Source of the DNA: a virus
Taxonomy: Duplodnaviria > Heunggongvirae > Uroviricota > Caudoviricetes
Virus record (IMG/VR): IMGVR_UViG_3300031413_000001
DNA length: 64,000 nucleotides
Strand: one strand, 5' to 3'
Every line of letters starts with the position of its first letter. Position 1 is the first letter of the stretch. Made by a program: the position numbers and the translations under genes. Shown one piece after another: positions 33,349 to 55,316 of the stretch. Below the pieces are notes generated by a model that was not told the DNA's origin, did not search any database, and was given only the letters and a program-made list of their open reading frames with translations.

Positions 33349-33786
33349 ATGTTAGAAGAATATATGAACAACAAAGGTCTGAAAGACCAAACATTCACTT
33401 GTGGGTGTTGCGGTGAAGAGTTCCCCTTTAAGGGTTATTCCTTTACCCATCGGTTTTGCAGTTCTAAATGCGCTGGCGATGCGAAAGCAAAAGCCAAGCG
33501 TGTTGAAGTTGAACAACTGTTCCTTGAGGGAAAGCTAACTGCTCGACCTCACATTTACCAGCTACTGGTAGATAGGGATGGTAACGAATGTTCAGTATGT
33601 AAGATCACAGAGTGGAATGGCCAGTCCATTAGACTTTGGGTCGACCATATTGATGGCGATGCGACCAACAACGCACCGCTAAACTTCCGATTGATTTGTC
33701 CAAATTGCGACAGTCAATCGGATACGTTCGGGGCTCGTAACAAAGGCAACGGACGCAAGTCTCGCGGACTTCCTCAATACGGCTAG
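33349..33786 (+). CDS. HNH homing-type endonuclease
   Basis: CSVC...VDHIDGDATNN...LICPNCDSQ. Confidence 0.9.
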   Translation: MLEEYMNNKGLKDQTFTCGCCGEEFPFKGYSFTHRFCSSKCAGDAKAKAKRVEVEQLFLEGKLTARPHIYQLLVDRDGNECSVCKITEWNGQSIRLWVDHIDGDATNNAPLNFRLICPNCDSQSDTFGARNKGNGRKSRGLPQYG

Positions 33787-33803
33787 ATCGAAAGGGAGGT
33801 CTT

Positions 33804-34013
33804 ATGGACGAAAAACTATTCAATGACATGAATGCTCCAATCACTGCTACTTCGGTAGGATTGTCGTTACTCATTGGTATGCTCCGTGATAATGGTACCA
33901 TTACTAATGAACAGCTCAGCGAGCTTACCCGCATTAGGGAAAGCTTATTGGCTGCTCCTAATGTTGAAGAGCGCAATAAATTGCTTGCAGAGTTGTTAGA
34001 AAGGCTATTATAA
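33804..34013 (+). CDS. Hypothetical protein
   Basis: ggagg RBS. Confidence 0.6.
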   Translation: MDEKLFNDMNAPITATSVGLSLLIGMLRDNGTITNEQLSELTRIRESLLAAPNVEERNKLLAELLERLL

Positions 34014-34024
34014 TAGCCTGATAT

Positions 34025-34095
34025 TGGGATATCCTCTAAGGGTAAGAGATCCGACTGTTAATCGGTCAATCTAGGTTCGAATCCTAGTTTCCCAG
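34025..34095 (+). tRNA. tRNA-Asn(GTT)
   Basis: Cloverleaf, G73. Confidence 0.85.
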
Positions 34096-34173
34096 CAAGT
34101 AGACGAGCCGAAGCAATGAGGGTTATCCTTTTAAGATTCACCCCTCGACCGCATCAACTTGTTCGTCGACTAT

Positions 34174-34246
34174 GTTTGGATAGCCCAGTGGTGAGGCAGG
34201 CGCTCGTGAACAGCGTCGGAGGCAGGTTCGAATCCGGCTCCAAACA
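34174..34246 (+). tRNA. Atypical tRNA, undetermined (loop cgtgaac)
   Basis: gtttgga/tccaaac acceptor; D and T arms present; no U33. Confidence 0.6.
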
Positions 34247-34248
34247 CT

Positions 34249-34346
34249 TCCTGGGGCCGTTGTGGACTGAAACCATCAGCCGGAACTCACAACTAAGCCC
34301 TCGCGAGCAGCCTAATTAACTGCTCAAGCGGCGTGCCCCAGGGACC
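34249..34346 (+). ncRNA. CCA-terminated non-cloverleaf RNA
   Basis: tcctggg/cccaggg-A-CCA; gttgtg/cacaac; gagcag/ctgctc. Confidence 0.5.
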
Positions 34347-34353
34347 AACTACA

Positions 34354-34429
34354 TTGCCCAATTAGCTGTTCGGTACGGCCGCCGTGTTTTGAGCTCGGAA
34401 AGACAAAGGTTCGAATCCTTGTTGGGCAT
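34354..34429 (+). tRNA. tRNA-Gln(TTG)
   Basis: tgcccaa/ttgggca; ttttgag loop. Confidence 0.75.
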
Positions 34430-34485
34430 CCCAGTTGACAAATTGAACAAAGGTGTTAGTTGTGGCTTCCAATAGGAGGTCGTCA

Positions 34486-34944
34486 ATGAATCCCGAGTTT
34501 GATGTCAACATCATCCAGCCCAAGCACATCTCGCTTTTGCGGGAAGTTGCTGATGGCAGGAAGAATTGGCGCGATGGGATCGTTGCACTTTACCGGCGAG
34601 AGCTGGTTGAGTATGATGGCCTCCACGCGGTCAAGATAACGGACCGAGGACGGTTTGCTCTACGGGGCATCTTTCCTGGTGCGATCGTACAAGTCGCCGC
34701 CGCCCACAAGCATTCATTCCTCCATGGAGTGGTTGGTCTTGTGGAGTCCCTGGACGTTCACTTTGTGGACGCTGATGGGATTGACGAGTATGGTTACGTT
34801 ATCAAGCGAGCGCGAGCATCGGCCTCCGCCAGTGTTCGTCTCGCAGATCGACCCGGACAGTGGATCTTCTACAATCCGGAATCGTTGGTTGGCTTTCCCA
34901 AACTGAAGGCCGAGATAAACGAGTATTGGAGAAACGTATGCTAA
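34486..34944 (+). CDS. Hypothetical protein
   Basis: aggagg RBS. Confidence 0.7.
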   Translation: MNPEFDVNIIQPKHISLLREVADGRKNWRDGIVALYRRELVEYDGLHAVKITDRGRFALRGIFPGAIVQVAAAHKHSFLHGVVGLVESLDVHFVDADGIDEYGYVIKRARASASASVRLADRPGQWIFYNPESLVGFPKLKAEINEYWRNVC

Positions 34945-35550
34945 GGGGAACTCGAGTTCTCGTGGGGGCTGAAGCCCGCGCGATGATTCAGATGACCGAT
35001 CTCCTGAGGAGGTTGGTTCACTGAAGCTGGATTTGATGAAGTAATTCTGCCCGCACTGTGGGAACAACAGACCTTCATCGACAAGGCTGGACCGGAAATC
35101 GTCAATCAAATGTGGGCCTTCCAGGATAAGGGAGGTCGAGATGTTTGCTTGATCCCCGAGGCCACTGGTCTCATCCAAGAATTGTGGCGCGACAAGTGGA
35201 AGGGAATGGGGAAGCCCATGAAGATCTTCTACGTGCAACGCTGCTATAGATACGAACGGCCACAAGCCGGACGCTATCGGGAGTTCACGCAATTTGGTGT
35301 GGAGTATCTAGGCGGAAACGCCCAGGACGACCGCCAAGAGGTTGTTGAGCTACTGCGGCGCTGTATGGAAGCAACAGGTGTCAATTGGACGCTCGTTGAT
35401 GCTGTAAAGCGCGGTCTATCCTACTATGTTGAGGATGGCTTTGAAGCTGTCTGCGACCAACTAGGGGCACAGAAACAGGTAGCCGGAGGTGGTAGATACG
35501 CTGAAGGTATTGGTTGGGCCATTGGGCTTGACAGACTGCTTCTGGCCTAA
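34938..35550 (+). CDS. hisS: Minimal histidyl-tRNA synthetase-like catalytic core, split by a +1 frameshift near 35016-35024
   Basis: Motif 2 YRYERPQAGRYREFTQFG, RGLSYY, motif 3 GGGRY..GIGWAIGLDRL; frame-0 stop TGA at 35022. Confidence 0.8.
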
Positions 35551-35560
35551 TAGACAAGAC

Positions 35561-35639
35561 TTTGGGATGGTTGTTCCAGCATACGCAAGAGTGTATGAGA
35601 GGCTAGAGGGTTGCCCTCTTGAAAACCATCCCAAACCCA
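35561..35639 (+). ncRNA. CCA-terminated non-cloverleaf RNA
   Basis: 12-bp tttgggatggtt/aaccatcccaaa-C-CCA enclosing two hairpins. Confidence 0.55.
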
Positions 35640-35640
35640 T

Positions 35641-35713
35641 GGGGACTTAGCTCAGTTGGGAGAGCGACTCGCTGGCAGCGAGTAGGTCAGGGGTTCGACT
35701 CCCCTAGTCTCCA
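35641..35713 (+). tRNA. tRNA-Ala(GGC)
   Basis: Cloverleaf, G3:U70. Confidence 0.9.
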
Positions 35714-35714
35714 C

Positions 35715-35792
35715 TCAACGTAGCAGTTGGATAAGAGAAGATCAGCGCACTGGCTACCACGGCCGGTATTGATGTTCCGCTACGTTGAACCA
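35715..35792 (+). ncRNA. CCA-terminated non-cloverleaf RNA
   Basis: 10-bp tcaacgtagc/gctacgttga-A-CCA; internal actggc/gccggt with a 7-nt loop. Confidence 0.55.
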
Positions 35793-35793
35793 T

Positions 35794-35866
35794 GGCCTAT
35801 GACTCAGCTGGGAAAGAGAACCGCCTGTCTAGCGGAATTTGGTGGGTTCGATTCCCATATAGGTCG
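35794..35866 (+). tRNA. tRNA-Asp(GTC)
   Basis: Cloverleaf, G73. Confidence 0.8.
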
Positions 35867-35919
35867 CGCAGGGAAAGCCGCCGGAACTGGCTTGACACTC
35901 TGAGAGCAGAGAACCAAAT

Positions 35920-35988
35920 GGGGCATCCTCTGGGTGTTGTCGCTGCACTTGCACTGCGGTAGGAAGGGTTCGATTCCCTTATGCTCCA
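35920..35988 (+). tRNA. tRNA-Ala(TGC), weak D arm
   Basis: G3:U70; cttgcac loop. Confidence 0.7.
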
Positions 35989-36010
35989 CTGAACAACTGT
36001 TGTTCTCCAT

Positions 36011-36083
36011 GGTGACCGTGGTGTAGCGGTAACATTTCTGGCCTGTGAAGCCGGAGTCGCGGGTTCGAACCCCGTCGGTCACC
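36011..36083 (+). tRNA. tRNA-His(GTG)
   Basis: Encoded G-1:C73; ctgtgaa loop. Confidence 0.9.
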
Positions 36084-36125
36084 CCTTCTAATTGACAGCA
36101 CGGCAACGTGGTGTTAGTTTGATAA

Positions 36126-36267
36126 TGTTGCTGATGCAGCTTGAGAGGATGGTCTTAAAAAGCCAGTGCCCTTGGGTCGCTATACGGTCGAGCAATAGGG
36201 ACAAGATTACCCGGACGTGAAAGCGTGGTGAGGTTGCGTCGCTGGCGAGAGGATCCGGTTGGCAACA
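36126..36267 (+). ncRNA. Candidate structured ncRNA
   Basis: Promoter ttgaca at 36092; closing stem tgttgctga/ttggcaaca. Confidence 0.4.
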
Positions 36268-36271
36268 ACAT

Positions 36272-36346
36272 GCGGGCATAGCTCAGTGGTAGAGCACTTC
36301 GTTGCCAACGAAGATGTCGTGGGTTCGAGCCCCATTGCCCGCTCCA
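36272..36346 (+). tRNA. tRNA-Gly(GCC)
   Basis: Canonical, CCA. Confidence 0.95.
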
Positions 36347-36347
36347 T

Positions 36348-36418
36348 ACTCAGTTAGCACAATGGCAGTGCGGTCGGCCGATTACCGATTGATGAGGGTT
36401 CGATTCCTTCACTGAGTA
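36348..36418 (+). tRNA. tRNA-Ile(GAT)
   Basis: actcagt/actgagt; C33. Confidence 0.75.
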
Positions 36419-36419
36419 C

Positions 36420-36704
36420 TGATCTTGCAAGTCGAGTTACAGCAGGGCAGAGATGCTTTGAGGAAGTTCGCGACTGGCGTGAGGGACGAGTGGGAGGTGG
36501 CCAAAAGCCATCGTAAGGGAAGAGACCACCGTGATTAAGCCAGCAAGCCAAATAGACCATGGCAATCCTTCAGCTATATGGTCGGGTTGGTGCAGCCAGA
36601 GAGCAGTAAGTTCTCATCGCGTAATGGCGAGGCACAAGGCCAGAAATGGTCGGGTAGGTAGATTGTAGCATAGAACAGGATCGCGGCTACAGACGGCAAG
36701 ATCA
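36420..36704 (+). ncRNA. rnpB: Putative RNase P RNA (compact)
   Basis: P1 tgatcttgc/gcaagatca; P2 gttacag/ttgtagc; P3 cagggc/gctttg; P4 agttcgcga/tcgcggct with bulged U; GAGGAAGU and AACAGGAUCGCGGCUA motifs. Confidence 0.75.
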
Positions 36705-36709
36705 AACAT

Positions 36710-36780
36710 GCGGGTATCGTATAATGGTATTACCTCAGCCTTCCAAGCTGATGACAGGGGTTCGATCCCCCTTACCCGCT
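36710..36780 (+). tRNA. tRNA-Gly(TCC)
   Basis: Cloverleaf, U73. Confidence 0.9.
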
Positions 36781-36784
36781 CATA

Positions 36785-36884
36785 GGCTCCACCCTCTGAT
36801 TGCGCCCTCGTGGTTCTTTCAAGGTCCCGTCTCGAGTACGAGGGGCACTATCGGCTACCTAGGAAGAGCTGATAGTTGGGAGTC
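36785..36884 (+). ncRNA. Candidate three-way-junction ncRNA
   Basis: ggctcc/ggagtc, ccctcgt/acgaggg, ctatcggct/agctgatag. Confidence 0.4.
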
Positions 36885-36888
36885 ATCT

Positions 36889-36962
36889 GCGGGTATGATG
36901 TAATGGTAGCTTGACACCTTGCCATGGTGTACGCGGGGGTTCGATTCCCCCTACCCGCTCCA
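36889..36962 (+). tRNA. tRNA-Gly(GCC), second copy
   Basis: Cloverleaf, CCA. Confidence 0.9.
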
Positions 36963-37091
36963 AGGTTCGTAACGAGACGGTCCGGGATTCATGAGTCCCT
37001 GGGCACGGCGTGGAGCGAAGGGTTGGCCGGCAATGTATAGAACGTTGTGACGAGGCAGCCGGTGTGGGGTGTGGATACCCATTACGAACTT
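36963..37091 (+). ncRNA. Candidate multibranch ncRNA
   Basis: aggttcgtaa/ttacgaactt closing stem; gggatt/agtccc, gccgg/ccggt, tggggt/acccca. Confidence 0.45.
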
Positions 37092-37097
37092 TAACAT

Positions 37098-37173
37098 GGC
37101 CCCATGACGGAATGGGAATCGTGACCGCCTGCAAAGCGGATCTATGTGGGTTCAATTCCCACTGGGGCCTCCA
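37098..37173 (+). tRNA. tRNA-Cys(GCA)
   Basis: Cloverleaf, U73, CCA. Confidence 0.9.
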
Positions 37174-37227
37174 ACGTTTGTTGTATCGTGCATCCAAGTC
37201 CCGTCTGATGGGAAGAGGAGAAACAAT

Positions 37228-37563
37228 ATGGCAAAGTTGAGCAAAGCTGTTCTGCAAAGGCAGCAAAAAGTAGATTACGTCGCCACCCTAGGTGAAGATG
37301 AAAGTCTCGATCTGGACAAGATCATCGCAGAGCACGGCCCTGGACTAACAATCCACTGGGAAAGTGGCTACTATGATGATCCCGGAAGTGTCACCATTCG
37401 TCGCATCCGTGAGGAGTCCGACGATGAATATGAGGCACGACTTGAACTGTTCCGTCAGATGGAACGCGACGCTCGGAACACCGTGAAAGCGGCTGCTGAG
37501 CGAAAGCTGATGGAAGAGCGGGCAACTTACGAGCGACTCCGCAAAAAGTTCGAGGACCAATAA
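37228..37563 (+). CDS. Hypothetical protein
   Basis: gaggag RBS. Confidence 0.75.
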   Translation: MAKLSKAVLQRQQKVDYVATLGEDESLDLDKIIAEHGPGLTIHWESGYYDDPGSVTIRRIREESDDEYEARLELFRQMERDARNTVKAAAERKLMEERATYERLRKKFEDQ

Positions 37564-37641
37564 GCCGTAAGGGGACACGCTTTAGGCGTTCTGGCAAACA
37601 GGAACTCACCCACTGGGGAGCAAAAGTCCTGGTCCCCATAT

Positions 37642-37714
37642 GCAACTCTGGCAGTGATGGTTCATGCGCCGGACTGAAAATCCGAGAATGTGGGTTCGAT
37701 CCCCACGGGTTGCA
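37642..37714 (+). tRNA. tRNA-Phe(GAA), second copy
   Basis: Cloverleaf. Confidence 0.85.
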
Positions 37715-37743
37715 CAAGTTGACAACAGTCCATCCAGACAGTA

Positions 37744-38019
37744 ATGTCTAGTATGACTTTTGAACGCTTTGAAGATTATGTGAAGACAATGGGTGGCGCG
37801 GCAATCTGCGTTCACCTTTTTATCACACAGCTTCTCTTTGGTTTGATCATGCAGCGGCCGGATTTGGTAAGCCAAGTCCAATGGCCCCTCGCAGGATTAG
37901 CTTTGCTTTGGGGCTGGATGGTGGTTCGCCGCTCCCCAGCCACACAGTATGTTCGTTGTCCAACGTGCCACAGTCGAGTGGACGAAAAGACTATTGACAT
38001 GCCGAGCAAAGAGCCATAA
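37744..38019 (+). CDS. Hypothetical membrane protein
   Basis: Two TM helices, CxxC. Confidence 0.55.
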   Translation: MSSMTFERFEDYVKTMGGAAICVHLFITQLLFGLIMQRPDLVSQVQWPLAGLALLWGWMVVRRSPATQYVRCPTCHSRVDEKTIDMPSKEP

Positions 38020-38027
38020 GTTAGTGT

Positions 38028-38101
<74 letters not shown>

Positions 38102-38155
38102 CTTAGACCAAGAATGCAGGATAGCGTTATGCCTAGATTGATATGCTTGGTCGAT

Positions 38156-38345
38156 GGTCACCGATGGGTAACCAGTGGAGGCGGCAGAATTATCTGTAGC
38201 GTCTGCCGGAAGCCCCGACCCTGGTAACAACGCACGGGCCGGACAGTCTGGGTTATCTCAAACTCAAACTTTGAACAAACCCCCAGATTACCAACTTGTC
38301 CGTGTTTTTAACTTCAGTGAAACCCATCTTAAATATCCGGTCACC
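38156..38345 (+). ncRNA. Candidate structured ncRNA
   Basis: gatgggt/acccatc, cggaca/tgtccg, tctggg/cccaga long-range stems. Confidence 0.35.
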
Positions 38346-38363
38346 AGAAAAGGAGATCGGCTT

Positions 38364-38615
38364 ATGTACAATGTGGTTCCTGCACTCGACGCGCTCAAGC
38401 TCGTTGGCGTAAACGCCAAGGATTGGATCATCAAGGCTGCAAAGTCCAAGACGATCTGGTTCTCGGCTGCTCTCACTGTTTTCGGTGCCGTGGAGGGTTT
38501 TCTTCCACAGATGGCAACAGTCCTTGGATCGCACTACGGCGCGGTTATCTCGGTTGTTGGTGTTATCACCGGCTTGCTTCGCTTTGCAACTACGGACGCA
38601 ATCGCGGACAAGTAA
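38364..38615 (+). CDS. Small membrane protein, holin-like
   Basis: KSKTIW followed by two TM helices; aggag RBS. Confidence 0.6.
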   Translation: MYNVVPALDALKLVGVNAKDWIIKAAKSKTIWFSAALTVFGAVEGFLPQMATVLGSHYGAVISVVGVITGLLRFATTDAIADK

Positions 38616-38645
38616 TAAAGTCCTGGGCTCCGGCCCAGGCAACAT

Positions 38646-38715
38646 GCCCCGTCCAGCGGATCTGGTGATTGGCCTTCGAAGCCGATTTACGATGGTTCAA
38701 CTCCATCCCGGGGCT
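38646..38715 (+). tRNA. tRNA-Arg(TCG)
   Basis: cttcgaa loop. Confidence 0.75.
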
Positions 38716-38719
38716 CTTT

Positions 38720-38822
38720 GCAGTCGTAGCTCAGTGTTGTCCTTCAAGTTTCTGCAGGAACTCGGACATTGGAATGAGCGCCGGTAGCCCGGAGGTCGGG
38801 GGTTCGATTCCCTCCTGCTGCA
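38720..38822 (+). tRNA. Atypical tRNA-like RNA: large D-loop insert, 4-nt anticodon loop
   Basis: D stem gctc/gagc around a ~43-nt insert; ccgg-tagc-ccgg; canonical T arm. Confidence 0.55.
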
Positions 38823-38826
38823 CTTT

Positions 38827-38900
38827 GCATCTATAGATCAGCTGGATAGATCGTTGCCCTCCGAAGGCAAAGGCCGTTGGTTCGAATCCAACTAGATGCG
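38827..38900 (+). tRNA. tRNA-Arg(CCG)
   Basis: Canonical. Confidence 0.9.
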
Positions 38901-38935
38901 CTTGACAAGCGGTGTAGAGCTGCTAGTTAAAAGAT

Positions 38936-39080
38936 CGATACGAGGGTGGTCCTCTGGGAAATTACCACCTGGAGGAAAGCGGCCCTCTTGGACGAGGCTG
39001 GGTGAGGCGACGGGACTGGTAACTCGTTGCAAGAGACCAGATACTCCAAGAGACTCTCCTGCTTTCACAGCCCTTGTATC
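38936..39080 (+). ncRNA. Candidate rod-shaped ncRNA (6S-like architecture)
   Basis: gatacgagggt/gcccttgtatc, gaaagcgg/ctgctttc, tcttgga/tccaaga, ctggt/accag; promoter at 38902. Confidence 0.45.
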
Positions 39081-39084
39081 TTAC

Positions 39085-39157
39085 GCCGGTTTAACTCAGT
39101 TGGTAGAGTGCCACCTTTGTAACGTGGATGTCAGGGGTTCGATTCCTCTAACCGGCA
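39085..39157 (+). tRNA. tRNA-Thr(TGT)
   Basis: Cloverleaf. Confidence 0.9.
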
Positions 39158-39231
39158 CTGTGGCCCCTAGTGGGCGAGGGTGGGTCGCCCCCATCTAAAG
39201 CGGGTACGCTATGAACATTGGGTACCAACAT

Positions 39232-39302
39232 GCCTTTATCGTTTAGTGGTAAGACAACGGATTCGTAACCCGTAAACCAGAGTTCGATTCTCTGTGAAGG
39301 CA
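39232..39302 (+). tRNA. tRNA-Thr(CGT)
   Basis: Cloverleaf. Confidence 0.8.
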
Positions 39303-39470
39303 CCGACCAAGAGAGTTAACGCCGTAGGCCCACTGGGACGCCTTTGGAAGCATGGTATTACTGTTGGGCAAGCCCCTGGATATTTGGATTCCAGAAGGTA
39401 AAGGAACCGGGTGTGGAAACTGGTCCTTGGTCGCTTGACACCCTGTACTCCTGATGTTATTCAGGATTCC

Positions 39471-39734
39471 ATGTATAAGGGAACCTTCCGACACGACGAC
39501 TACGTCCACCCCCGATTGTTAAATCGGATGGGTCGTGAGGGTATCAATCTGCGGATTGAGGTCACTTTTGCCATAAGCAAAGAGTGGAAGGCGACTTGGC
39601 TCCCCATCTATGAATGGTTGGCTGAACATCGCGTTTCCTACTGGACCTATAGCCCGTTTTCCACGGACTACAGGCGATACTTTGGGTTCGAGAGAGCCCA
39701 GGACGCCATGCTGTTTAAGCTGACGTTCGCATAA
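39471..39734 (+). CDS. Hypothetical protein (F..AQDAMLFKL family)
   Basis: C-terminal motif shared with other small ORFs. Confidence 0.65.
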   Translation: MYKGTFRHDDYVHPRLLNRMGREGINLRIEVTFAISKEWKATWLPIYEWLAEHRVSYWTYSPFSTDYRRYFGFERAQDAMLFKLTFA

Positions 39735-39735
39735 C

Positions 39736-39803
39736 GCTCCAACCAATGGATGGAGGCGGTCCTCCTAAGACTGCCCTTGTAGGTTCGACTCCCACTTGGA
39801 GCA
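39736..39803 (+). tRNA. tRNA-Arg(CCT), reduced D arm
   Basis: gcggtc-ctcctaa-gactgc. Confidence 0.55.
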
Positions 39804-39843
39804 CTTGGCATAAGTAGATTGCAACTCAACAGGAGTAACTTTT

Positions 39844-39939
39844 ATGTTCAAGAAGATTTTCGAATTCGTCATTGCCAAGAAGCTGATTGAAAAGGTGCTC
39901 GCAAAGCGCGCAGCAAAGAAGAATCAGCCAAGGGTATAA
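39844..39939 (+). CDS. 31-aa cationic amphipathic peptide
   Basis: aggag RBS; MFKKIFEFVIAKKLIEKVLAKRAAKKNQPRV. Confidence 0.55.
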   Translation: MFKKIFEFVIAKKLIEKVLAKRAAKKNQPRV

Positions 39940-39979
39940 TTGACTTACGGCTAACCAAGCTGTAGAACAAGAATATGAT

Positions 39980-40052
39980 CGGCGGACCGATCGTTTAGGG
40001 TTATCGCATTGGAAGCACTGGTATGTGGGTTCGAGTCCCACCTCCCCGACCA
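39980..40052 (+). pseudogene. Degenerate tRNA-Pro(TGG)
   Basis: T arm and CCA intact; anticodon stem mostly lost. Confidence 0.5.
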
Positions 40053-40123
40053 CATGACGGGGAGTAGGCCAATTGGATGAGCCGGTTTACATCCTATTCA
40101 ACACTTGTCCGCCGATTATACAT

Positions 40124-40196
40124 GGTCCATTGGAGAAGCGGAGTTCTCGCCACCCTGTCACGGTGGAGATCACGGGTTCGATCCCCGTATGGATCG
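40124..40196 (+). tRNA. tRNA-Asp(GTC), second copy
   Basis: ccacc-ctgtcac-ggtgg. Confidence 0.9.
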
Positions 40197-40199
40197 CTG

Positions 40200-40345
40200 A
40201 ATCAAGAACCGATGGCCTTGGGTTATCGAAAACTAGCTGACCTTGGTCATGTAGGTTCGAGTCCTACCGTTCCGACTTTGACGGAACGTGGCGGAATTTG
40301 GCAGACGCGGCTATTATATCCAGAGCAAACAACTTGTTCTTGATT
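40200..40345 (+). ncRNA. Second YrlA-like Y RNA (permuted Leu-type tRNA module)
   Basis: aatcaagaa/ttcttgatt; CCGAUGG / CAACUUG; T arm, cgttccg-7nt-cggaacg, D arm. Confidence 0.75.
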
Positions 40346-40352
40346 CAATCTT

Positions 40353-40440
40353 GGAAGATTAATTGGACTGGGTCCAAACCTGCCTCGAAAACAGTGTGTG
40401 CGGCTAATACCCGTATGGAGTTCGATTCTCCAGTCTTCCG
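40353..40440 (+). tRNA. tRNA-Ser(CGA)
   Basis: Long arm, G73. Confidence 0.75.
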
Positions 40441-40443
40441 CTT

Positions 40444-40686
40444 ATGACATGGAACGATTATCCACTGATCAAGCCCGATACCAAGGGCTACTATATGACC
40501 GTCTATTTTGATCCCCTGGCGTGCCGGGAGTATTGGAAGGCCATATGGTATGATCCAAAGGATGATCGCTGGTGGCCTTGGCGTCTAAGCCAAGACAATC
40601 CCGAGGTCATAAAGTTTGTACCAGAATCACGGCATGATTACTATGTGCCTTGCGTGATGTGGTATGAACAAAATCATGGAAAGTAA
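40444..40686 (+). CDS. Hypothetical protein
   Basis: 80 aa aromatic-rich ORF. Confidence 0.55.
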   Translation: MTWNDYPLIKPDTKGYYMTVYFDPLACREYWKAIWYDPKDDRWWPWRLSQDNPEVIKFVPESRHDYYVPCVMWYEQNHGK

Positions 40687-40763
40687 ACTGCACAGGGTGT
40701 AGCACTGATTGGAAATCAGTTGGGACCGCAAGGTCTGGGGTTCGAGTCCCCTGCTTTCCTCCA
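40678..40763 (+). tRNA. tRNA-Ser(GGA)
   Basis: actga-ttggaaa-tcagt; long arm; CCA. Confidence 0.8.
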
Positions 40764-40764
40764 T

Positions 40765-40842
40765 CAGGGTGTGAGCTAATTGGTAAGCTGTCTCCTTTGG
40801 AAGGAGGACATCGTGGGGGTTCGAGTCCCTTCACCCTGACCA
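40765..40842 (+). tRNA. tRNA-Pro(TGG)
   Basis: C1:G72, A73, CCA. Confidence 0.85.
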
Positions 40843-42889: not shown

Positions 42890-43582
42890 ATGGAACTAAC
42901 ACGCGGCGAGACCTATGATCAGGGTCTTCGCAATTACATGGTGGGCATCTACAACTGGCTCATCCTCGGCGTCCTGATCAGCGCCGCCGGTGCCTATGGT
43001 GGCATCGCGCTGGGTCTCCCGGCGTTCTTCGCAGCCCACAGTGGCTGGTTTCTCCTCGCACTCCTGGCTCCCCTGGGCATCGTGTTCTTCATGGCCAGCG
43101 GCCTGGAACGTGCCAGTGTAACTGCCCTGGCCGTGGCATTCATTGCCCTCACGGCCGTAGAAGGCATGACGCTTTCGCTGATCCTGAGTAAGGTAAGCGG
43201 CGTGCTGGTCCTGGAAGCGTTTATGATGACCGCAGTGGCATTCGCCGGCTGTAGTCTATACGGCTATACGACCGGGAAGTCGCTGAGCGGTCTGGGAACC
43301 ATCCTGCTGATGAGTCTCATTGGTCTGATCGTGGCCATGATCATGGGAATGTTCTTCCAGTCAACGGTGTTTCAGCTGATCATCTGCTTTGCAGGTCTGA
43401 TCATCTTCGCAGCCTTTATGGCCTACGATACGCAGAAGCTGAAGCAGGCATATCATCCGGGTATGAGCAGCGATGAGCGGGCTCGGGTCAGCTTGTGGGG
43501 CGCACTGGAGCTCTACTTGGATATCCTGAACTTCTTCCTCTTCGTCCTTCGCATCCTGGGCATCTTCAGCAGCGACGACTAA
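42890..43582 (+). CDS. Bax inhibitor-1 / YccA family membrane protein
   Basis: Seven TM helices; AYDTQKLK, ALELYLDILNFFLFVL. Confidence 0.95.
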   Translation: MELTRGETYDQGLRNYMVGIYNWLILGVLISAAGAYGGIALGLPAFFAAHSGWFLLALLAPLGIVFFMASGLERASVTALAVAFIALTAVEGMTLSLILSKVSGVLVLEAFMMTAVAFAGCSLYGYTTGKSLSGLGTILLMSLIGLIVAMIMGMFFQSTVFQLIICFAGLIIFAAFMAYDTQKLKQAYHPGMSSDERARVSLWGALELYLDILNFFLFVLRILGIFSSDD

Positions 43583-48065: not shown

Positions 48066-48950
48066 ATGAGCGTCAAAATGGCTCTGGCAAAACTTTGTGC
48101 CTGCGCTTGCGGAGGTGCAATCATTGGAGGCGGTGCAGTTCACGTTGCTGAACGACCCGCATCCAAACAGCGCCTGATGACCAAGACGACCAAGGCGGTT
48201 CACCGTCCCAGTCGCCGTGTAGTCCACCGAAAGGTTGTTCGACGAGGAAAGCGGGTCATCACGACCACGCAGACTTGTGCCCCTGCGGTGGTCACTGTGG
48301 TAAACGGTGGCGCTGGGGTACCTGTACCGGTCCCACTGGCCTCGGGTATCGTAGGGGGCAGTGGGGGCAGCTCTGGGGGCCTGGGAGGCAGTGGGGGCTT
48401 CTTCGGAGGCTCGGGCGGCTTTGGTAGCAGCGGTGGTGGTTTTGGTGGAGGAGGCGGCTTCGGAGGAAGTGGTGGCTCCGGCGGAAGCATCGTGGTCTCC
48501 AGCACGAGCAGCGGCGGAAGCACTTCTACTGGCGGTGGCTCCACCAGCACAGGTGGCAGTTCAACTAGTACGGGTGGAAGTTCGACGAGTACCGGCGGCA
48601 GCTCAACCAGCACCGGTGGTGTCTCGAGCACGAGCAGCTCAAGTGGAAACGTGAGCAGCACCAGCAGCGGCAATGTCAGCAGCACCAGCAGTGGCAACGT
48701 TTCGTCCACCTCGTCGGGTTCCAGTAGTTCGTCGACCAGCAGCAGCACGAGCAGTTCCAGCAGCTCAAGTGGTTCGAGCAGCACCAGCAGTGGTGGCTGG
48801 AGTTCCAATGGTGGATCATCGGGCAATCATGGTTCCACTGGTAGCAGTGGTGGTCCTCCGGCTCCCGTTCCTGCTCCACCGATGGTGATTCTCTTTGGCG
48901 CAGCGGCCCTGGCACTTGTGGTCCGTAAGCGGATCACCAAGCCGGCCTAA
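48066..48950 (+). CDS. Gly/Ser-rich exported protein with a PEP-CTERM-like sorting signal
   Basis: Signal peptide; GGSST repeats; PVPAPPMVILFGAAALALVVRKR. Confidence 0.75.
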   Translation: MSVKMALAKLCACACGGAIIGGGAVHVAERPASKQRLMTKTTKAVHRPSRRVVHRKVVRRGKRVITTTQTCAPAVVTVVNGGAGVPVPVPLASGIVGGSGGSSGGLGGSGGFFGGSGGFGSSGGGFGGGGGFGGSGGSGGSIVVSSTSSGGSTSTGGGSTSTGGSSTSTGGSSTSTGGSSTSTGGVSSTSSSSGNVSSTSSGNVSSTSSGNVSSTSSGSSSSSTSSSTSSSSSSSGSSSTSSGGWSSNGGSSGNHGSTGSSGGPPAPVPAPPMVILFGAAALALVVRKRITKPA

Positions 48951-49035
48951 GTTATTCACAAAGTTATGCACAGGCAATATAGGGCGTCCTATTTTTGTTC
49001 TTGCACTGCTCGGTGGTCTTGCGTAGAAGAGTGTT

Positions 49036-49450
49036 ATCGGAAGCGCAGACGCAGAAGGTAACGCAGACGAAAGTTTGCCAGATCAGAAGCAGAAGCAAAT
49101 TCGATACCAAAGAACTTCGGTTCGATGGTTGACCAGTTGGTGGCCTAATCCCCCTAAAGGCACACGGTGCCAACTGGTCTAACCGAGTTTACCCAAGTGG
49201 TGCTGAACTCCCTGGCTTGTAGCTTCGGCTATCTGTCAAAGCAACAGCATTGCGGAAGGTGAAACCACACGGGTAGCAATACTTGTGTTGGTTGGGATGC
49301 AGGGCCTCAAAACTCTGCATCCCTAACAGATTGGCAGGTTGATCGTTAGGACAGGCTTCGGCTAATCCGTGGTTGCCCTGCTGATACTTTGCAGGAGCCC
49401 GAGGCTCGGCAGAGTTGGGGTCGGCGGCTTTAGGGCTTCCGGCCCCTTAA
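49036..49450 (+). ncRNA. Large structured ncRNA of unknown family (~400 nt)
   Basis: Promoter ttgcac 49001 / tagaag 49024; many stems with UUCG or GNRA loops. Confidence 0.65.
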
Positions 49451-49546
49451 TCATTTCCAGCAGAAGCAAAAACATATCGCAGGGCAGAACGTTAACCCGT
49501 ATTAAATAGAGAACATGACGCGCACCGCGTCCGAGGTATTCTCAAT

Positions 49547-51076
49547 ATGCAGGTTGCCCAGTTCAACAAGGGTCACGACATCTTCTTCGCCGCGATCGAG
49601 AAGACCCGTATGCCCATGGCACTTACGGATCCCAATCAGCCTGACAATCCAATCGTATTCGTCAACCGGGCGTTTGTTGAGCTCACGGGATACGAGGAAA
49701 CTGAAATCCTTGGCCGTAACTGTCGCTTTCTACAAGGCGAGGATTCTGATCCCGAGACAGTCACGCAGATCCGTGAAGCCATTGCGGCTCGCGAGGATCT
49801 GTCTGTTGAACTCCTGAACTATCGCAAAGATGGCAGCACCTTTTGGAATGCCCTTTACATCAGTCCAGTCTATGACGACAAGAACAACCTGCGATTCTTC
49901 TTTGCCAGCCAGCTGGATATCAGTCGTCGCCACTTGGCCGAGGAAGCACTTCAGCAAGCGCAGAAGATGGAAGCAGTCGGCCAGCTGACCGGTGGCATTG
50001 CCCATGACTTCAACAACATGCTGACCGTCATTCAGGGAAACTTAGAACTTGCGATGGCGAGAGCTAATGGGCAAGACGCCGTGATCAAGCCAATGGATCG
50101 TGCCATGAAGGGTGCCCTCCATGCGGCCAAGCTGACCGAGCAGCTATTGAGCTTTGCCCGAAAGCAGCGCCTGAACAGCACCACGGTCAACTTGAATGAC
50201 ATGGTCACTGGAACCGTTGACGTCATTGCTCGGACGCTTGGTAGCAATGTGGAGATTGGTCTCAACTTGGATCAGGATGTGGCCTTGGTGGAAGTGGACG
50301 TTGTCCAGCTGAACACGGCCATCTTGAACGTTTTGATTAATGCCCGTGACGCGATGCCTCATGGTGGCAAGATCTGCATCTCCACCCACAACGAAACTAT
50401 TGAAGATCCAGGTGAGTGGCTGGTCACGCCGGGAACCTACAGCGTGATCTCCCTAAAGGATGATGGCGTAGGAATTCCTCCCGAGCATATCAAACACGTC
50501 ACGGAGCCCTTTTACACCACCAAGGAAGTTGGCAAGGGAACCGGTATGGGTCTTGCAATGGTCTTTGGATTCCTAAAGCAAAGTGGTGGACACCTCGTCA
50601 TCAACAGCGATGGTGATGGAACTGACATCCGCTTTTACCTGGCTCAGAGCTCCAACGCTGAGATCCACAAGAGCAACGTAAAGGCTCACTTCAAAGAATC
50701 CCCTCGTCGTAGCGAGCGCCTATTGGTTGTTGAGGACAACCAGCAGATCATGGATATGATGCACGACACACTTACGGATCAGGGCTATGACGTCCGCTTT
50801 GCAACCAGTGCCGCAGAAGCCATTGGGATAATGGACGATGGTTTCAAGCCTGAGGTGCTCTGCACGGATATCGTGATGCCTGGTCTGCTGAACGGTGTAG
50901 ATCTCGCCCATGAGGTTAAGAAGCGTTTTCCCAAGGCAAAGGTTCTCCTCTGCACTGGCTGGGCCAATCGTCACCTTGACCGTGAACACGAGTTTTCAAT
51001 CTTGTCCAAGCCCTACAAGCCAAGCGATCTGGTGCAAAGGCTGACCAGCTTGATTGTCCGGGGCCACGAAGGCTAA
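49547..51076 (+). CDS. LOV-domain hybrid sensor histidine kinase (LOV-HisKA-HATPase-REC)
   Basis: GRNCRFLQG; GIAHDFNN H-box; GKGTGMGL; receiver domain LCTDIVMPG. Confidence 0.95.
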   Translation: MQVAQFNKGHDIFFAAIEKTRMPMALTDPNQPDNPIVFVNRAFVELTGYEETEILGRNCRFLQGEDSDPETVTQIREAIAAREDLSVELLNYRKDGSTFWNALYISPVYDDKNNLRFFFASQLDISRRHLAEEALQQAQKMEAVGQLTGGIAHDFNNMLTVIQGNLELAMARANGQDAVIKPMDRAMKGALHAAKLTEQLLSFARKQRLNSTTVNLNDMVTGTVDVIARTLGSNVEIGLNLDQDVALVEVDVVQLNTAILNVLINARDAMPHGGKICISTHNETIEDPGEWLVTPGTYSVISLKDDGVGIPPEHIKHVTEPFYTTKEVGKGTGMGLAMVFGFLKQSGGHLVINSDGDGTDIRFYLAQSSNAEIHKSNVKAHFKESPRRSERLLVVEDNQQIMDMMHDTLTDQGYDVRFATSAAEAIGIMDDGFKPEVLCTDIVMPGLLNGVDLAHEVKKRFPKAKVLLCTGWANRHLDREHEFSILSKPYKPSDLVQRLTSLIVRGHEG

Positions 51077-51117
51077 TTCAATATCGCAACCCACATTCTA
51101 CTCTGTTAGTTTGAACT

Positions 51118-51423
51118 ATGAGCGCAGATGTAGATGAACTCCTAGATATTCACCAGCAGATGATCACCATGATCCGCACCTATGGGGTGGACGTGGAGGA
51201 GATCTGCGATGCATGGGAAACCCGCCTATACGCATGGCATGATGCTTTCCTTGAGATCACAGCCGAGGTGCAAGTTCAGTACCAACAGACTGGTGATCCC
51301 AAGATGGAGCTCAGCAAAAGTCAGTTCGAGAACTTTCAGGACATCGCAGCCCTGAAGGAAGAGATTACTGAGTACGGAAACGCGATCTTTGACGCTATCA
51401 AGCGCGACCGAGAAGAGGGTTAA
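51118..51423 (+). CDS. Hypothetical protein
   Basis: 101 aa acidic ORF. Confidence 0.65.
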   Translation: MSADVDELLDIHQQMITMIRTYGVDVEEICDAWETRLYAWHDAFLEITAEVQVQYQQTGDPKMELSKSQFENFQDIAALKEEITEYGNAIFDAIKRDREEG

Positions 51424-51666
51424 ACAGAAAAAGTCACCGAGTGTGATTTTTGTTGTTGACGTTGTTCAAAAGGATCCGTATAAGAGTGAGACCAAAGCGG
51501 TGCAGCGCACGGCAGAGGACAGCAAAAGCGGTACGAACCGGACGCCATCTAGGTGGCAAATGGCAAGTTAAAGCGAGTAGGTGTCCAACGCCAAAAACTA
51601 CACCGTCTTGGTACTGATCGAAACAAAGTTGTTGACATCCCAATGCTTCGGCAGTAAGTTGTAAAC

Positions 51667-52550
51667 ATACAGAGTTAGAACAGATTGGCCGCTTGGGGCC
51701 ATTAACAGAGTAACGTTAGGGTAACTTAACGGAAAGAGAGCAAAACCCAATAGCTCTCGCGTAGAAATGCGTCTCACCAAGCAAGTCCAATCCTGCTGAT
51801 TAACAGTCAGCTCTTTGATCCCTCCCAAGGGGTGCAGAGATAGATAGGACACCAATAGAGCTGTTGTTCCAGGTTCGCCTGGTATGAATGCAGATGGCGA
51901 CGAGCGGTCTGCTAAGGGTTTCGCACCCCACATGGCTCATGCGATATTGGTTAGTATCAAGTGGTAATGGATAGTCAATTAGTCTGAGGGTCGCACCAAG
52001 GGCGTTTGGCAAATACAAGGGTTGTGGTATTGGTGTAAAAAGCCAATGACATAGTCCTGAAGATTGATCAAGTAGCCCCGCAAGGCGAAAGATACGTGGT
52101 GTGTAGTATTTTGTCGGCCGAAAGGTCTATGAAGCTACTGAGTCAGCACATCGCAATGGGTTTGGTGAAAGCCATTTAGCATTCTGGACATTGCTGTCAA
52201 AAATCGAAAGCCTGACTCGCTAGTGAAGCAAGTAGCGAAAGCTGCGTAAGATGCCTAATCCTCCAGGCTAAGGCTAATGGAGGCACTGAAAGGCCCGAAA
52301 GCCCGACGGTGTTGGTAGAAGAGTTCTTGGTGGGGCCGCAACCCCTTAGTTGCCCGCGAGGGTAGACGTGAACAGACGCTGCCGAATAGCTCGCTAGGTC
52401 ACCGCTAACGCCAGCGGTATATAAGATGGAAGCGGCATTGCTGACTACTAGGTGAATACTTCGGTTACCCTTAGTGGAATACGACAGAAAACGGATGTCA
52501 CAGTCCGGGATAATGGTCGAAGGTCAGTACAAGAGGTGTATTCTCAGCCT
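51667..52550 (+). ncRNA. GOLLD-like giant ncRNA
   Basis: ~880-nt gap with promoter ttgaca 51632 / taagtt 51655; recalled GOLLD-like motifs gtggtgtgtagtatt...gagtcagcacatc, gaatagctcg, tattctcagcc. Confidence 0.7.
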
Positions 52551-52588
52551 ACCAGGAGGCCCAGGACGGAAACGTTCTGGGCTTCGCC

Positions 52589-54646
52589 ATGTCCGGCGCT
52601 CTCCGCCCGAACACACCAAACATCAAAATGATTAAATACACGGGTATCCTCCTGAAAGGTAGCTTCGTGTCTAAACATCTTTTCACCCCACATTCCAGTG
52701 AGATGGCAAAGCGGATGCAAGCCCATGATTGGGACAGCACTCCACTTGGCTCTTCGGATGGGTGGCCGGAGACTTTGAAGACTCTTGTCCGCATTATGCT
52801 TGCAAGTGGTCAGCCTATGTTTACAACATGGGGACCAGATCGAATCCTACTTTACAATGATCCATATATTCAGATGCTGGCTGATCGTCATCCAATGGCG
52901 CTGGGTCAGCGATTCAATGATGTGTGGGTTGAAGCGATGCCCGACTTGGAACCACTGTTCCATCAAGTCTACGAGGGCTTTCCAGTATTCATGGACGACC
53001 TAACTCTCTTTCTAGACCGGGAAGGCTTCCCCAAGGAAAGTCACTTTGCATTCAGCTATACGCCAATTCGTCCCATGGTTGGTGAAGAGATCCTGGGCTT
53101 GTTCTGTGCCTGCACAGAGACAACCAACAGTGTGATGGCGCGCAAAAAGGTGGACATGGAGCGTGAACGCTTGTTCCGCATGAGCAGCGACTTGTTCGCA
53201 GTTGGAACCTTTGATGGATACCTGCTGAGTGTAAATCCTGCATGGTCAGTATCGCTGGAACGCACTGACGAAGAACTCCTAGCTATTCCCTTTCTGGATA
53301 TCATCCACCCCGAGGATCTGGAAAAAGTTGAGATTGCTGTTGAGATAATGCGAAGTGGAGAGCCTCATCAGTTCCACACTCGTCTTCTAAAGAGCGATGG
53401 GACGTCACGCAATTTTGCATGGTCGTCAATTCCCGATACAGATTCCAGTAGCTCAATCTTCTACACCGTTGGCCGTGATATCACGGATGAGGTGCAGCGA
53501 GAAGAGATGTTCCGTCAGGCACAAAAGATGGAGGCCGTTGGTCAGTTGACCGGAGGTGTCGCTCATGATTTCAACAACCTCTTGACAGTTATCCAGGGAT
53601 CCGTTGATCTGTTGCGTCGCGCTGATCTACCGGAAGCCCGACGAGTCAAGTACATTGATGCCATTGCCAACACCAGCAAGAGGGCAGCCAAGCTGACAAG
53701 CCAGCTGTTGGCTTTTGCTCGTCGCCAGGCACTGAAGCCAGCGGTGTTTGAAGTTGGTCAGAATGTCCGCGCAGTCACGGATATGATCCAGAGTCTAATG
53801 GGTGGAAAGATCAATGTAACGACGCTGTTCAGCGATCTCCCCTGCTATGTGAATGCAGACCCCAGCCAGTTTGATACAGCGATTGTCAACATGGCAATCA
53901 ACGCACGTGATGCAATGGACCATGAGGGAGCATTGACGATCACCGTAAAGGAAGTCGACAGTCTGCCGGCTGTTCGAGAGAATGCCGCCATCGCTTCCAG
54001 CTACATCTCGGTTAGCCTTGAGGACAACGGATGCGGCATTCCTGCTGATCAGATCAACAAGATCTTTGAGCCGTTCTTCACAACCAAGGACACTGGCAAG
54101 GGCACTGGACTGGGCTTGAGTCAGGTCTTTGGTTTCTCACGCCAGAGCGGAGGCGAGATTCAAGTTGAGAGCGAAGTTGGAGTTGGTAGCAAGTTCACAC
54201 TATTCCTTCCATCGGTCGAGGAACCCGCGGAGTTCAAGACTGAGGGCGAAGTAATTGAGCTGGTAAAGGGACACGGTACGAGAGTTCTGCTAGTTGAAGA
54301 CAATGCCGATGTTGGAAACTTTGCGACTCAAGCACTCAATGAGCTTGGCTATGAAACCGTATGGTCCGCTACAGCAGACGAGGCCTTGGAAGAACTAGCC
54401 GAGTGCGATGATTGCTTTGACATCGTGTTCAGTGATGTTGTGATGCCTGGTATGAATGGCGTTGAGCTTGGCCATGAGATCCGTCGACTATACAAGAACT
54501 TGCCCGTGGTACTAACCAGCGGCTACAGTCATGTATTGGCCAAGAACGGTACTTACGGCTTTGAACTACTTCACAAGCCATACAGTATCGAACAGCTCAG
54601 TCAGATTTTGAGCAAGGCGCTTGCTTGGAAAAAGGCTAATTCCTAA
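52589..54646 (+). CDS. PAS-PAS hybrid sensor histidine kinase with receiver (true start probably ~52668-52703)
   Basis: WDSTPLG, HFAFSYTP, GVAHDFNN, GKGTGLGL, VFSDVVMPG. Confidence 0.95.
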   Translation: MSGALRPNTPNIKMIKYTGILLKGSFVSKHLFTPHSSEMAKRMQAHDWDSTPLGSSDGWPETLKTLVRIMLASGQPMFTTWGPDRILLYNDPYIQMLADRHPMALGQRFNDVWVEAMPDLEPLFHQVYEGFPVFMDDLTLFLDREGFPKESHFAFSYTPIRPMVGEEILGLFCACTETTNSVMARKKVDMERERLFRMSSDLFAVGTFDGYLLSVNPAWSVSLERTDEELLAIPFLDIIHPEDLEKVEIAVEIMRSGEPHQFHTRLLKSDGTSRNFAWSSIPDTDSSSSIFYTVGRDITDEVQREEMFRQAQKMEAVGQLTGGVAHDFNNLLTVIQGSVDLLRRADLPEARRVKYIDAIANTSKRAAKLTSQLLAFARRQALKPAVFEVGQNVRAVTDMIQSLMGGKINVTTLFSDLPCYVNADPSQFDTAIVNMAINARDAMDHEGALTITVKEVDSLPAVRENAAIASSYISVSLEDNGCGIPADQINKIFEPFFTTKDTGKGTGLGLSQVFGFSRQSGGEIQVESEVGVGSKFTLFLPSVEEPAEFKTEGEVIELVKGHGTRVLLVEDNADVGNFATQALNELGYETVWSATADEALEELAECDDCFDIVFSDVVMPGMNGVELGHEIRRLYKNLPVVLTSGYSHVLAKNGTYGFELLHKPYSIEQLSQILSKALAWKKANS

Positions 54647-54698
54647 TTGACGTGCTTTCAAGCTGGTGCTAGGGTACTGGCTTGGGAGACAACGATCG

Positions 54699-55316
54699 AT
54701 GTATGATGCTCTGATAAAAGCTGCCGCCGCTGGATGCGTTTGTGTATGCACCATGGTGGTGGCTGACAAAGTCTCCAAGCCACGTCCAGCAGTTCACAAC
54801 ACTGCCGCAGGGGCTCACACAGCCCACAAGCGCGTGACAAAGCGCCATCGCGTACACCACAAGATCCGACATCATGCCAAGCGCCGGAAGGCCGTGAGGA
54901 TGAAGAAAGTCTGCGATTGCACGCTCGATACGGGCGGCGGTGCAGGGCTAATGGATCTCACTCCCATCACCTACTTGGGCGATCTGCCCACTGCACCCGT
55001 ACATCTCTGGAGCGAACTTCCCATTCTCGGCGAAACTGACGAGGATGAGCAGACCGGCGGCGGTGGTGGAGGCGGCAGCCTGGGTAGCTTTCCCGGTGGT
55101 TTCGCTGGTGGAGGCGGTGGCTTCGGCGGTGGTGACTACATCATCCCAACCACTCCCGTGAAACCCAATCCTCCCATCGTTCCCGGAACCCCTGCTCCAG
55201 CGGTGCCCGAACCCTCAACGTGGGCAATGATGCTCTTTGGTTTTGGCATGGTTGGTTATACGATGCGGCGGCAAAGGGTGAGGATCAATACCAATGGACT
55301 ATCAGGAACGAGATAA
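54699..55316 (+). CDS. PEPxxWA-CTERM sorting-domain protein
   Basis: AVPEPSTWAMMLFGFGMVGYTMRR. Confidence 0.9.
   Translation: MYDALIKAAAAGCVCVCTMVVADKVSKPRPAVHNTAAGAHTAHKRVTKRHRVHHKIRHHAKRRKAVRMKKVCDCTLDTGGGAGLMDLTPITYLGDLPTAPVHLWSELPILGETDEDEQTGGGGGGGSLGSFPGGFAGGGGGFGGGDYIIPTTPVKPNPPIVPGTPAPAVPEPSTWAMMLFGFGMVGYTMRRQRVRINTNGLSGTR

Follow-up and report, generated by a model that had tools for sequence, protein, structure and literature searches.

A PRK13557-family LOV histidine kinase gene in a T4-like jumbo phage lineage

Introduction

In bacteria, the hybrid kinases of the PRK13557/NF010076 family combine a LOV domain, a histidine kinase, and a response regulator receiver (LOV-HK-RR) in a single protein, and this architecture has been noted chiefly in plant pathogens (PMC3684834). 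The LOV-HK of Pseudomonas syringae binds flavin mononucleotide (FMN); in blue light it autophosphorylates and then transfers the phosphate to the receiver of the same protein (PMC3684834). Its effect on swarming depends on His164 and Asp461 (PMC3684834). Xac-LOV of Xanthomonas citri shows canonical LOV photochemistry and has effects on motility, exopolysaccharide (EPS), biofilm, and adhesion (PMC3366940). In the present study, a gene for a kinase of this family is described in the DNA of a tailed phage (Caudoviricetes), the IMG/VR record IMGVR_UViG_3300031413_000001. The whole stretch of 64,000 nucleotides that was analyzed is hereafter called the window, and the product of the gene is called the LOV kinase. 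The analysis makes it fairly likely that the phage would make a working, blue-light-regulated hybrid kinase of the PRK13557 family in the infected cell, with an output through a host component or a phage receiver.

LOV kinases of other types are also known. LovK of the LovK-LovR system of Caulobacter, the LOV-HK of Brucella (3T50, 6PH4; PMC4438053, PMC8092228), and EL346 (4R3A) have HWE/HisKA_2 cores and no fused receiver, and this group carries the link to the general stress response. YF1 (4GCZ) and SB2F1 (8A3U, 8A6X) are engineered chimeras with the kinase core of FixL, and they have no receiver.

Quorum signals and arbitrium peptides are among the chemical cues that phages are known to read, and cyanophages carry photosynthesis genes. 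VqmA of vibriophage VP882 and the arbitrium system are phage-carried sensors which tie infection decisions to an environmental cue. Their inputs are small molecules or peptides and their action on transcription is direct, whereas the LOV kinase would sense light via a two-component kinase. By full-text searching of the literature, with most subscription journals outside its coverage, no report of a phage-encoded LOV photoreceptor kinase was found.

Results

Domain structure and family membership

As mapped in Table 1, the LOV kinase consists of a LOV domain, a J-alpha linker with a dimerization and histidine phosphotransfer (DHp) domain, a catalytic ATP-binding (CA) domain, and a receiver (REC) domain. 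It scores 652.8 bits against the NCBIfam model NF010076 (PRK13557), whose cut-off is 631, and residues 5-503 align with model positions 24-533 of 540. It has the adduct cysteine in the NCRFLQ motif, a HisKA-type DHp, the boxes of the CA domain, the receiver residues, and the fixed linker spacing. The LOV kinase is a full-length member of this family. With Pfam, PAS_9 was found at residues 30-126 (E 2e-20), HATPase_c at residues 251-366 (62.3 bits, E 7e-17), and Response_reg at residues 393-499 (E 6e-15). HisKA at residues 145-207 scored 26.4 bits, which is 0.5 under the cut-off of 26.9.

The LOV cysteine, the H-box, the ATP-binding boxes, and the receiver had been described as intact in an earlier reading made from the sequence only, and this was borne out. 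The GRNCRFLQG motif occupies residues 56-64 (the Cys59 codon is TGT at 49721-49723) and the H-box AHDFNN residues 152-157, followed by the N-box (265-269), the G1-box (305-310), the F-box (321-326), and the G2-box (329-336). All these residues and those of the receiver are invariant in an alignment of 25 phage and bacterial sequences. The polar flavin contacts (two Arg, two Asn, and two Gln residues) are present, and they are invariant or nearly so across the homologue alignments. Together with the adduct cysteine, these contacts (R60, Q63, R76, N91, N101, and Q122) are in register with those of YtvA and Brucella LOV. Since the highest mean hydropathy over 19 residues is only 1.6 and lies within the catalytic domain, the protein should be soluble.

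Among the solved structures, the best full-length match is YF1 (4GCZ, E 7e-48), while the kinase core matches the DHp-CA part of CckA (5IDJ, E 2e-42) and the LOV domain is about 60 % identical, over 121 residues, to that of Brucella LOV-HK. An AlphaFold model was built on 25 homologues. In this model, the LOV domain has pLDDT values of 81-87, and a continuous helix of residues 128-172 joins it to the DHp. The top ranks of a Foldseek search with the model were occupied by LOV kinases (4GCZ, 8A6X, 4R3A, and 6PH4). The modelled LOV domain superposes on 3T50 with a TM score of 0.94 and an rmsd of 0.8 Å at 52 % identity.

The distance from Asp124 in the D-I-S motif of the LOV domain to the phospho-accepting His153 is 29 residues, and it is the same in 111 of the 121 homologues and in all six phage copies. 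YF1 and SB2F1, the best sequence and fold matches over the LOV, linker, DHp, and CA regions, share the heptad register, since 29 residues are one heptad fewer than the 36 of YF1 (29 = 36 - 7). The spacing fits a rigid coiled-coil transmitter, although the polarity of the signal is not inferred from it, and the light-repressed polarity of the two chimeras is not transferable. Xac-LOV and P. syringae LOV-HK resemble the LOV kinase in domain order, solubility, the AHDFNN H-box, the 29-residue spacing, and the fused receiver, with 47-50 % full-length identity. In contrast to them, the phage copy is virus-encoded, falls in a separate clade, and has a phage-like GC content. It is also shorter (509 residues, compared with 520-545 in bacterial members), mainly due to a shorter N-terminal tail before the A'-alpha helix.

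The sequence-only reading had also tied the gene to the general stress response of Alphaproteobacteria. If so, the LOV kinase would act like LovK or Brucella LOV-HK and feed the PhyR/NepR/EcfG pathway through a single-domain receiver. Such a receiver does exist in the record nearest to the window, the IMG/VR genome G001 (416,714 bp, 90 % complete by CheckV, sharing 60 % of sampled words with the window), which encodes a stand-alone receiver at 272409-272744. However, some 70 kb separate this receiver from the LOV gene, and in NCBIfam it best matches the receiver region of NF010076 (105.7 bits) rather than PhyR (46.7 bits against a cut-off of 240). The LOV kinase itself reaches only 192 bits with the LovK-type model NF052306 (cut-off 450), over residues 10-248 only, and no match to HWE_HK or HisKA_2 (PF07536, PF07568) was found in it with Pfam. 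What it shares with LovK, Brucella LOV-HK, and EL346 is the LOV domain. Its core is of the HisKA type and CckA-like (292 bits with NF046020), and its receiver is fused. The proposed link rests on the wrong subfamily, because it belongs to the HWE/HisKA_2 kinases such as LovK and Brucella LOV-HK. Thus, the link was not borne out, and a role of the LOV kinase as a stress-response controller is improbable.

Phage ownership of the gene

The genomic setting is that of a T4-like jumbo myophage, as read from the capsid and sheath genes of G001 and the tRNA set of the window. G001 encodes a T4 gp23 capsid protein (E 1e-95) and has a weak tail-sheath match (21 bits). The window has 49 tRNA genes, 45 of which lie within a dense array at 29002-40842 on the plus strand. 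The LOV kinase of G001 is 91 % identical to that of the window. Further orthologues with 71, 63, and 60 % identity were found on a 48.6-kb JGI contig, a 151-kb ENA contig, and two Logan contigs, and a 463,863-bp contig encodes an identical copy of the neighbouring 101-residue protein.

Is the gene a piece of host DNA that was mis-assembled onto a phage, or a recent neutral capture without a role? The closest named homologues are indeed bacterial (Brevundimonas, 52-56 % identity), and one relative, L028, lacks the gene at the site. However, the same gene was found in the same neighbourhood in G001, L011, L012, L013, and L014, whose samples and assemblers differ. The recurring neighbours are a class II aminoacyl-tRNA synthetase, a Bax1-I protein, a 118-residue GerE helix-turn-helix (HTH) protein, a non-coding RNA (ncRNA), the LOV kinase itself, a GOLLD RNA, SerRS, and a NUDIX protein. 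A mis-join with host DNA is excluded, because such a join would not recur, in diverged form, across independent assemblies. The GC content of the LOV gene is 0.529 (GC3 0.63), compared with 0.532 for the window, and in each phage relative it tracks that of its own locus (0.48-0.59). In contrast, the nearest bacterial homologue is chromosomal, adjoins recJ and a cold-shock gene on a 2.4-Mb contig, and has a GC content of 0.70 and a GC3 of 0.92. The phage copies have also diverged deeply and yet have a dN/dS ratio of about 0.1. The integrity of the contig, which the sequence-only reading had asked to be confirmed, is upheld by synteny in at least five independent assemblies, phage-like composition, and a monophyletic phage clade; both host contamination and a chimeric assembly are excluded. 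As far as sequence data allow, the artefact and passenger explanations are excluded, with hardly any probability left to them, and the LOV gene belongs to the phage.

In L028 (a 63-kb contig), the locus has the GerE gene, the non-coding element, a gene for a protein of about 100 residues, and GOLLD, but not the LOV kinase. Because it is absent at the same site there, the LOV gene is accessory and lies in a variable island rather than in the core genome. Among the INPHARED phages, no DNA match was found, and tblastn gave only distant kinase matches.

Other LOV matches in IMG/VR (L020-L024, L026, and L027) were not counted as phage photoreceptors. They lie on contigs of 8-58 kb, some of which come from isolate genomes. 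The kinase of L020 adjoins PagL, and that of L026 is of the HWE type and stands beside Stealth-family genes. These kinases look like host genes in or beside predicted proviruses.

Phylogeny, selection, and habitat

An unrooted tree was built from 74 full-length homologues. It groups the five syntenic phage copies in a single clade (SH-aLRT 97). The path lengths among phage copies reach about 1 change per site. A copy on the 499,572-bp IMG/VR contig L005, probably of a 500-kb leaf megaphage lineage, joins the clade with SH-aLRT 95, although this placement is not secure; its branch is very long (2.17 changes per site). The L005 kinase (5926-7515) has the same architecture, an intact NCRFLQ motif, and the 29-residue linker. 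It differs in its 47 % identity, in a locus GC content of 0.58, and in having Gly where all other copies have Arg76, a contact of the flavin phosphate; the ncRNA and the gene for the 101-residue protein were not found beside it. By both identity and path length, the nearest cellular sequences are those of Brevundimonas and other Caulobacteraceae (P0006, P0011, P0013, P0015, and P0020), which have 52-56 % identity over 98 % of the length, but the phage copies are not nested within this group. The gene was probably acquired in a single event by an ancestor of this T4-like jumbo phage lineage, the source being a proteobacterial host.

Purifying selection on the phage LOV kinase is strong. Between the window and G001, dS is 0.60 and the overall dN/dS is 0.095, with 0.08 for the LOV domain, 0.03 for the linker and DHp, 0.07 for CA, and 0.14 for REC. 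Between L011 and L014, dN/dS is 0.07. In the more distant comparisons, pN is lowest in the LOV domain (0.13-0.17, compared with 0.20-0.32 for CA and REC). Since LOV is the slowest-evolving domain there, the sensor itself seems to be kept, and not merely the kinase.

The runs which contain 100 % of the words of the 48900-52700 region are phyllosphere metagenomes and are possibly the source samples. Runs from other studies with about half of the words (51 % and up) are phyllosphere or plant metagenomes. As seen in the homologue search, the bacterial PRK13557 family is prominent in genera of the leaf, such as Methylobacterium, Sphingomonas, and Xanthomonas. The phage lineage probably lives on leaves. 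Ten metatranscriptome runs from leaf litter contain 22-26 % of the words; these may come from the flanking RNAs only and are neutral as to expression of the LOV gene. For organisms on exposed leaf surfaces, sunlight is a major source of stress.

These data bear on the main rival explanation, in which the kinase would hijack host phosphorelays independently of light. It would be a constitutive kinase, phosphatase, or phosphate sink that overrides a host LOV or CckA-like phosphorelay, or else a reader of flavin redox or the oxidative state, and the LOV pocket would be kept only for folding and dimerization. The CckA-like kinase core described above suits such a role, a fused receiver can serve as a phosphate sink, and several phenotypes of a Xanthomonas lov mutant are equal in light and dark (PMC3366940). 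On the other hand, neither the adduct cysteine nor any polar flavin contact varies among phage copies that are already saturated at synonymous sites, the LOV domain is the most conserved one, and the habitat is exposed to light. I therefore regard the hijack as rather unlikely, and prefer a kinase that is regulated by blue light.

A late promoter candidate upstream of the gene

A TAAATA box upstream of the LOV gene had been noted at 49504 in the sequence-only reading; the box is present, but it starts at 49503. It had been likened to boxes of the structural genes and taken as a sign that the LOV gene is wired into the phage program. The window is without a structural module, and thus TAAATA was assessed on 60 kb of G001 including the sheath and capsid genes. 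It was found that 13 of the 21 TAAATA copies in this region lie at most 60 nt upstream of a gene start on the same strand, including that of an 809-residue sheath-like gene, whereas the next best hexamers of the same composition reached 4 of 9 or fewer. In the window, the corresponding count is 6 of 18. TAAATA is thus a credible late-promoter core in this phage lineage. For the LOV gene itself, the box is shared only with the 91 % relative, and the wiring claim holds only in part.

The T4-type late promoter TATAAATA is an extended -10 box that stands shortly upstream of late genes and has no -35 element. As a candidate for such a box, the window has TATTAAATA at 49500-49508, at a distance of 38 nt from the start codon of the LOV gene. 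The window has a single exact copy of this 9-mer. Allowing one mismatch gives 8 matches, where 3.4 are expected, and a count of 8 is reached in 2 of 100 shuffles. Taken by itself, the 9-mer is thus weak, as it is not significantly enriched. Near 49450, the structured RNA candidate upstream terminates in a stem-loop, a sign that the kinase gene may have a promoter of its own. Late expression of the LOV gene is plausible.

Candidate signalling partners

G001 encodes three receiver domains: two in hybrid kinases, and one in the stand-alone protein mentioned above. The latter is 39 % identical to the receiver of the LOV kinase, and it is a reasonable candidate for a phospho-acceptor of the LOV kinase. 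Within the window, no receiver gene was found beside the LOV gene.

The 101-residue neighbour was considered as a histidine phosphotransfer (Hpt) protein or an obligate partner, and it was rejected; His12, the one histidine that looked conserved, varies among 13 family members, and the gene occurs without the LOV kinase in L028.

Flanking RNAs and neighbouring genes

Two large conserved RNAs flank the LOV gene (Table 1). The upstream ncRNA candidate has a minimum free energy (MFE) z-score of -5.87. By nhmmer, it was also found in L004, L028 (E 4e-52), L011 (E 1e-34), and L014 (E 2e-23), and it has been kept although the neighbouring genes are saturated at synonymous sites. Compensatory changes occur in 25 of 101 predicted pairs among five sequences. 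No Rfam match was found at E < 0.1. The downstream GOLLD RNA occurs at the same place in L004 (148.8 bits), L011 (144.8 bits), L012 (190.5 bits), and L028 (177.4 bits).

Table 1. Features of the LOV kinase gene and its surroundings in the window
Feature	Position	Strand	Remarks
GerE/LuxR-type HTH protein, 118 aa	47170..47526	+	Syntenic in all relatives examined
Structured non-coding RNA candidate	49040..49460	+	Directly upstream of the LOV gene; stem-loop end before the TAAATA box
TAAATA box, candidate T4-type late-promoter core	49503..49508	+	38 nt before ATG; kept only in G001
GAGG ribosome-binding site	49533..49536	+	10 nt 5' of ATG
LOV-HisKA-HATPase_c-REC hybrid histidine kinase gene	49547..51076	+	Single open frame, 509 aa, soluble, ATG start
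LOV domain, aa 12-128	49580..49930	+	Adduct Cys59; pocket N58, R60, Q63, R76, N91, N101, Q122
J-alpha linker and DHp, aa 129-210	49931..50176	+	Phospho-accepting His153, codon 50003-50005
Catalytic ATP-binding domain, aa 211-372	50177..50662	+	N, G1, F, G2 boxes
Fused receiver domain, aa 390-503	50714..51055	+	E396, D397, D441 (codon 50867-50869), T470, K488
101-aa acidic helical protein	51118..51423	+	Small phage family; downstream of the LOV gene
GOLLD RNA (RF02032)	52096..52550	+	145.9 bits, gathering score 150, E 1e-39
Second hybrid kinase, PAS-HisKA-HATPase_c-REC, 685 aa	52589..54646	+	38 % identical to the LOV kinase over the core

In L012, a homologue of the 101-residue protein (43 % identity) is encoded directly upstream of the kinase gene. 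The family of this protein has about 11 small relatives in a library of 1.8 billion proteins, with D6, Q13, I16, R20, W33, Y38, D42, and L45 invariant. A feature search of the ESM Atlas with this protein gave only a 0.75 match, under the useful range. The second hybrid kinase was found only in the window and G001 among the loci examined, and its N-terminal region of about 200 residues matches no Pfam family.

Two proteins flanking the sensor island have PEP-CTERM-like C-termini. The one encoded at 48066-48950 (+) has 294 residues, is rich in Gly and Ser, and has no Pfam match, while the one encoded at 54666-55316 (+) has 216 residues and matches PF07589 (E 3e-9). Such proteins beside the island point to a host with an exosortase. 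Host-like accessory genes of the window encode a glutathionylspermidine synthase (7529-8710, +; phrog_6215, E 7e-123), an ADP-ribosylglycohydrolase (19115-20077, +; phrog_6572), and a Bax1-I/YccA-type membrane protein (42890-43582, +; PF01027, E 1e-51).

Discussion

How would a blue-light-regulated kinase work in the infected cell? On the model of characterised family members, the soluble kinase would dimerize via the continuous J-alpha/DHp coiled coil and bind the FMN of the host. Blue light would form an adduct between Cys59 and the flavin. The signal would then travel down the 29-residue linker and alter autophosphorylation at His153, and the phosphate would move from His153 to Asp441 of the kinase's own receiver.

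Several points weigh against a phage-made light-regulated kinase of this kind. The LOV gene is missing from the L028 site and is dispensable for the lytic cycle. In the 71, 63, and 60 % relatives, the 500 nt preceding the LOV gene contain no TAAATA. The GerE protein is without a receiver according to Pfam. P. syringae LOV-HK is without a known cognate regulator, and even in bacteria the members of the family are orphan kinases (PMC3684834). The donor cannot be named, because the tree is unrooted, its branches are long, and the phage clade nests in no named group. With Pfam, no Hpt domain was found in G001 even at E <= 1. Since there is no phage Hpt gene, the output would run via a host phosphotransfer protein or response regulator, via the stand-alone receiver of the phage, or by self-regulation through the phosphorylated receiver.

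The purpose of the LOV kinase may be to couple host behaviour (motility, attachment, exopolysaccharide, or stress protection) or the late programme of the phage to daylight on the leaf surface. Carrying an intact and strongly conserved LOV kinase, the phage probably tells day from night within its host. The analogy with Xanthomonas and P. syringae makes motility, attachment, and exopolysaccharide the candidates for the controlled traits. The sequence-only reading had proposed that the phage may sense light to tune the stress responses of the host or the timing of lysis. In a more specific and speculative version, the photoreceptor would time infection by daylight: late genes or lysis might be held in blue light, as a signal of damaging sun on the leaf, so that virions are released at dusk or in shade, and host motility, attachment, or photoprotection might also become light-dependent. 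This version is possible, but I hold it to be doubtful.

The case put forward here consists of five syntenic copies in a lineage of about 417-464 kb together with a presence/absence polymorphism, the family assignment, and the promoter test. The idea of light sensing is directly testable, because the protein is small, soluble, and from a biochemically tractable family. It is also a natural LOV kinase shaped by viral evolution, and it may help to show how jumbo phages that have no Hpt themselves connect to the two-component signalling of their hosts. If the idea is true, this would be the first bacterial virus shown to sense light directly through a dedicated sensor kinase. By reading light from within the host cell, a virus could set the moment of its release or change how the host behaves.

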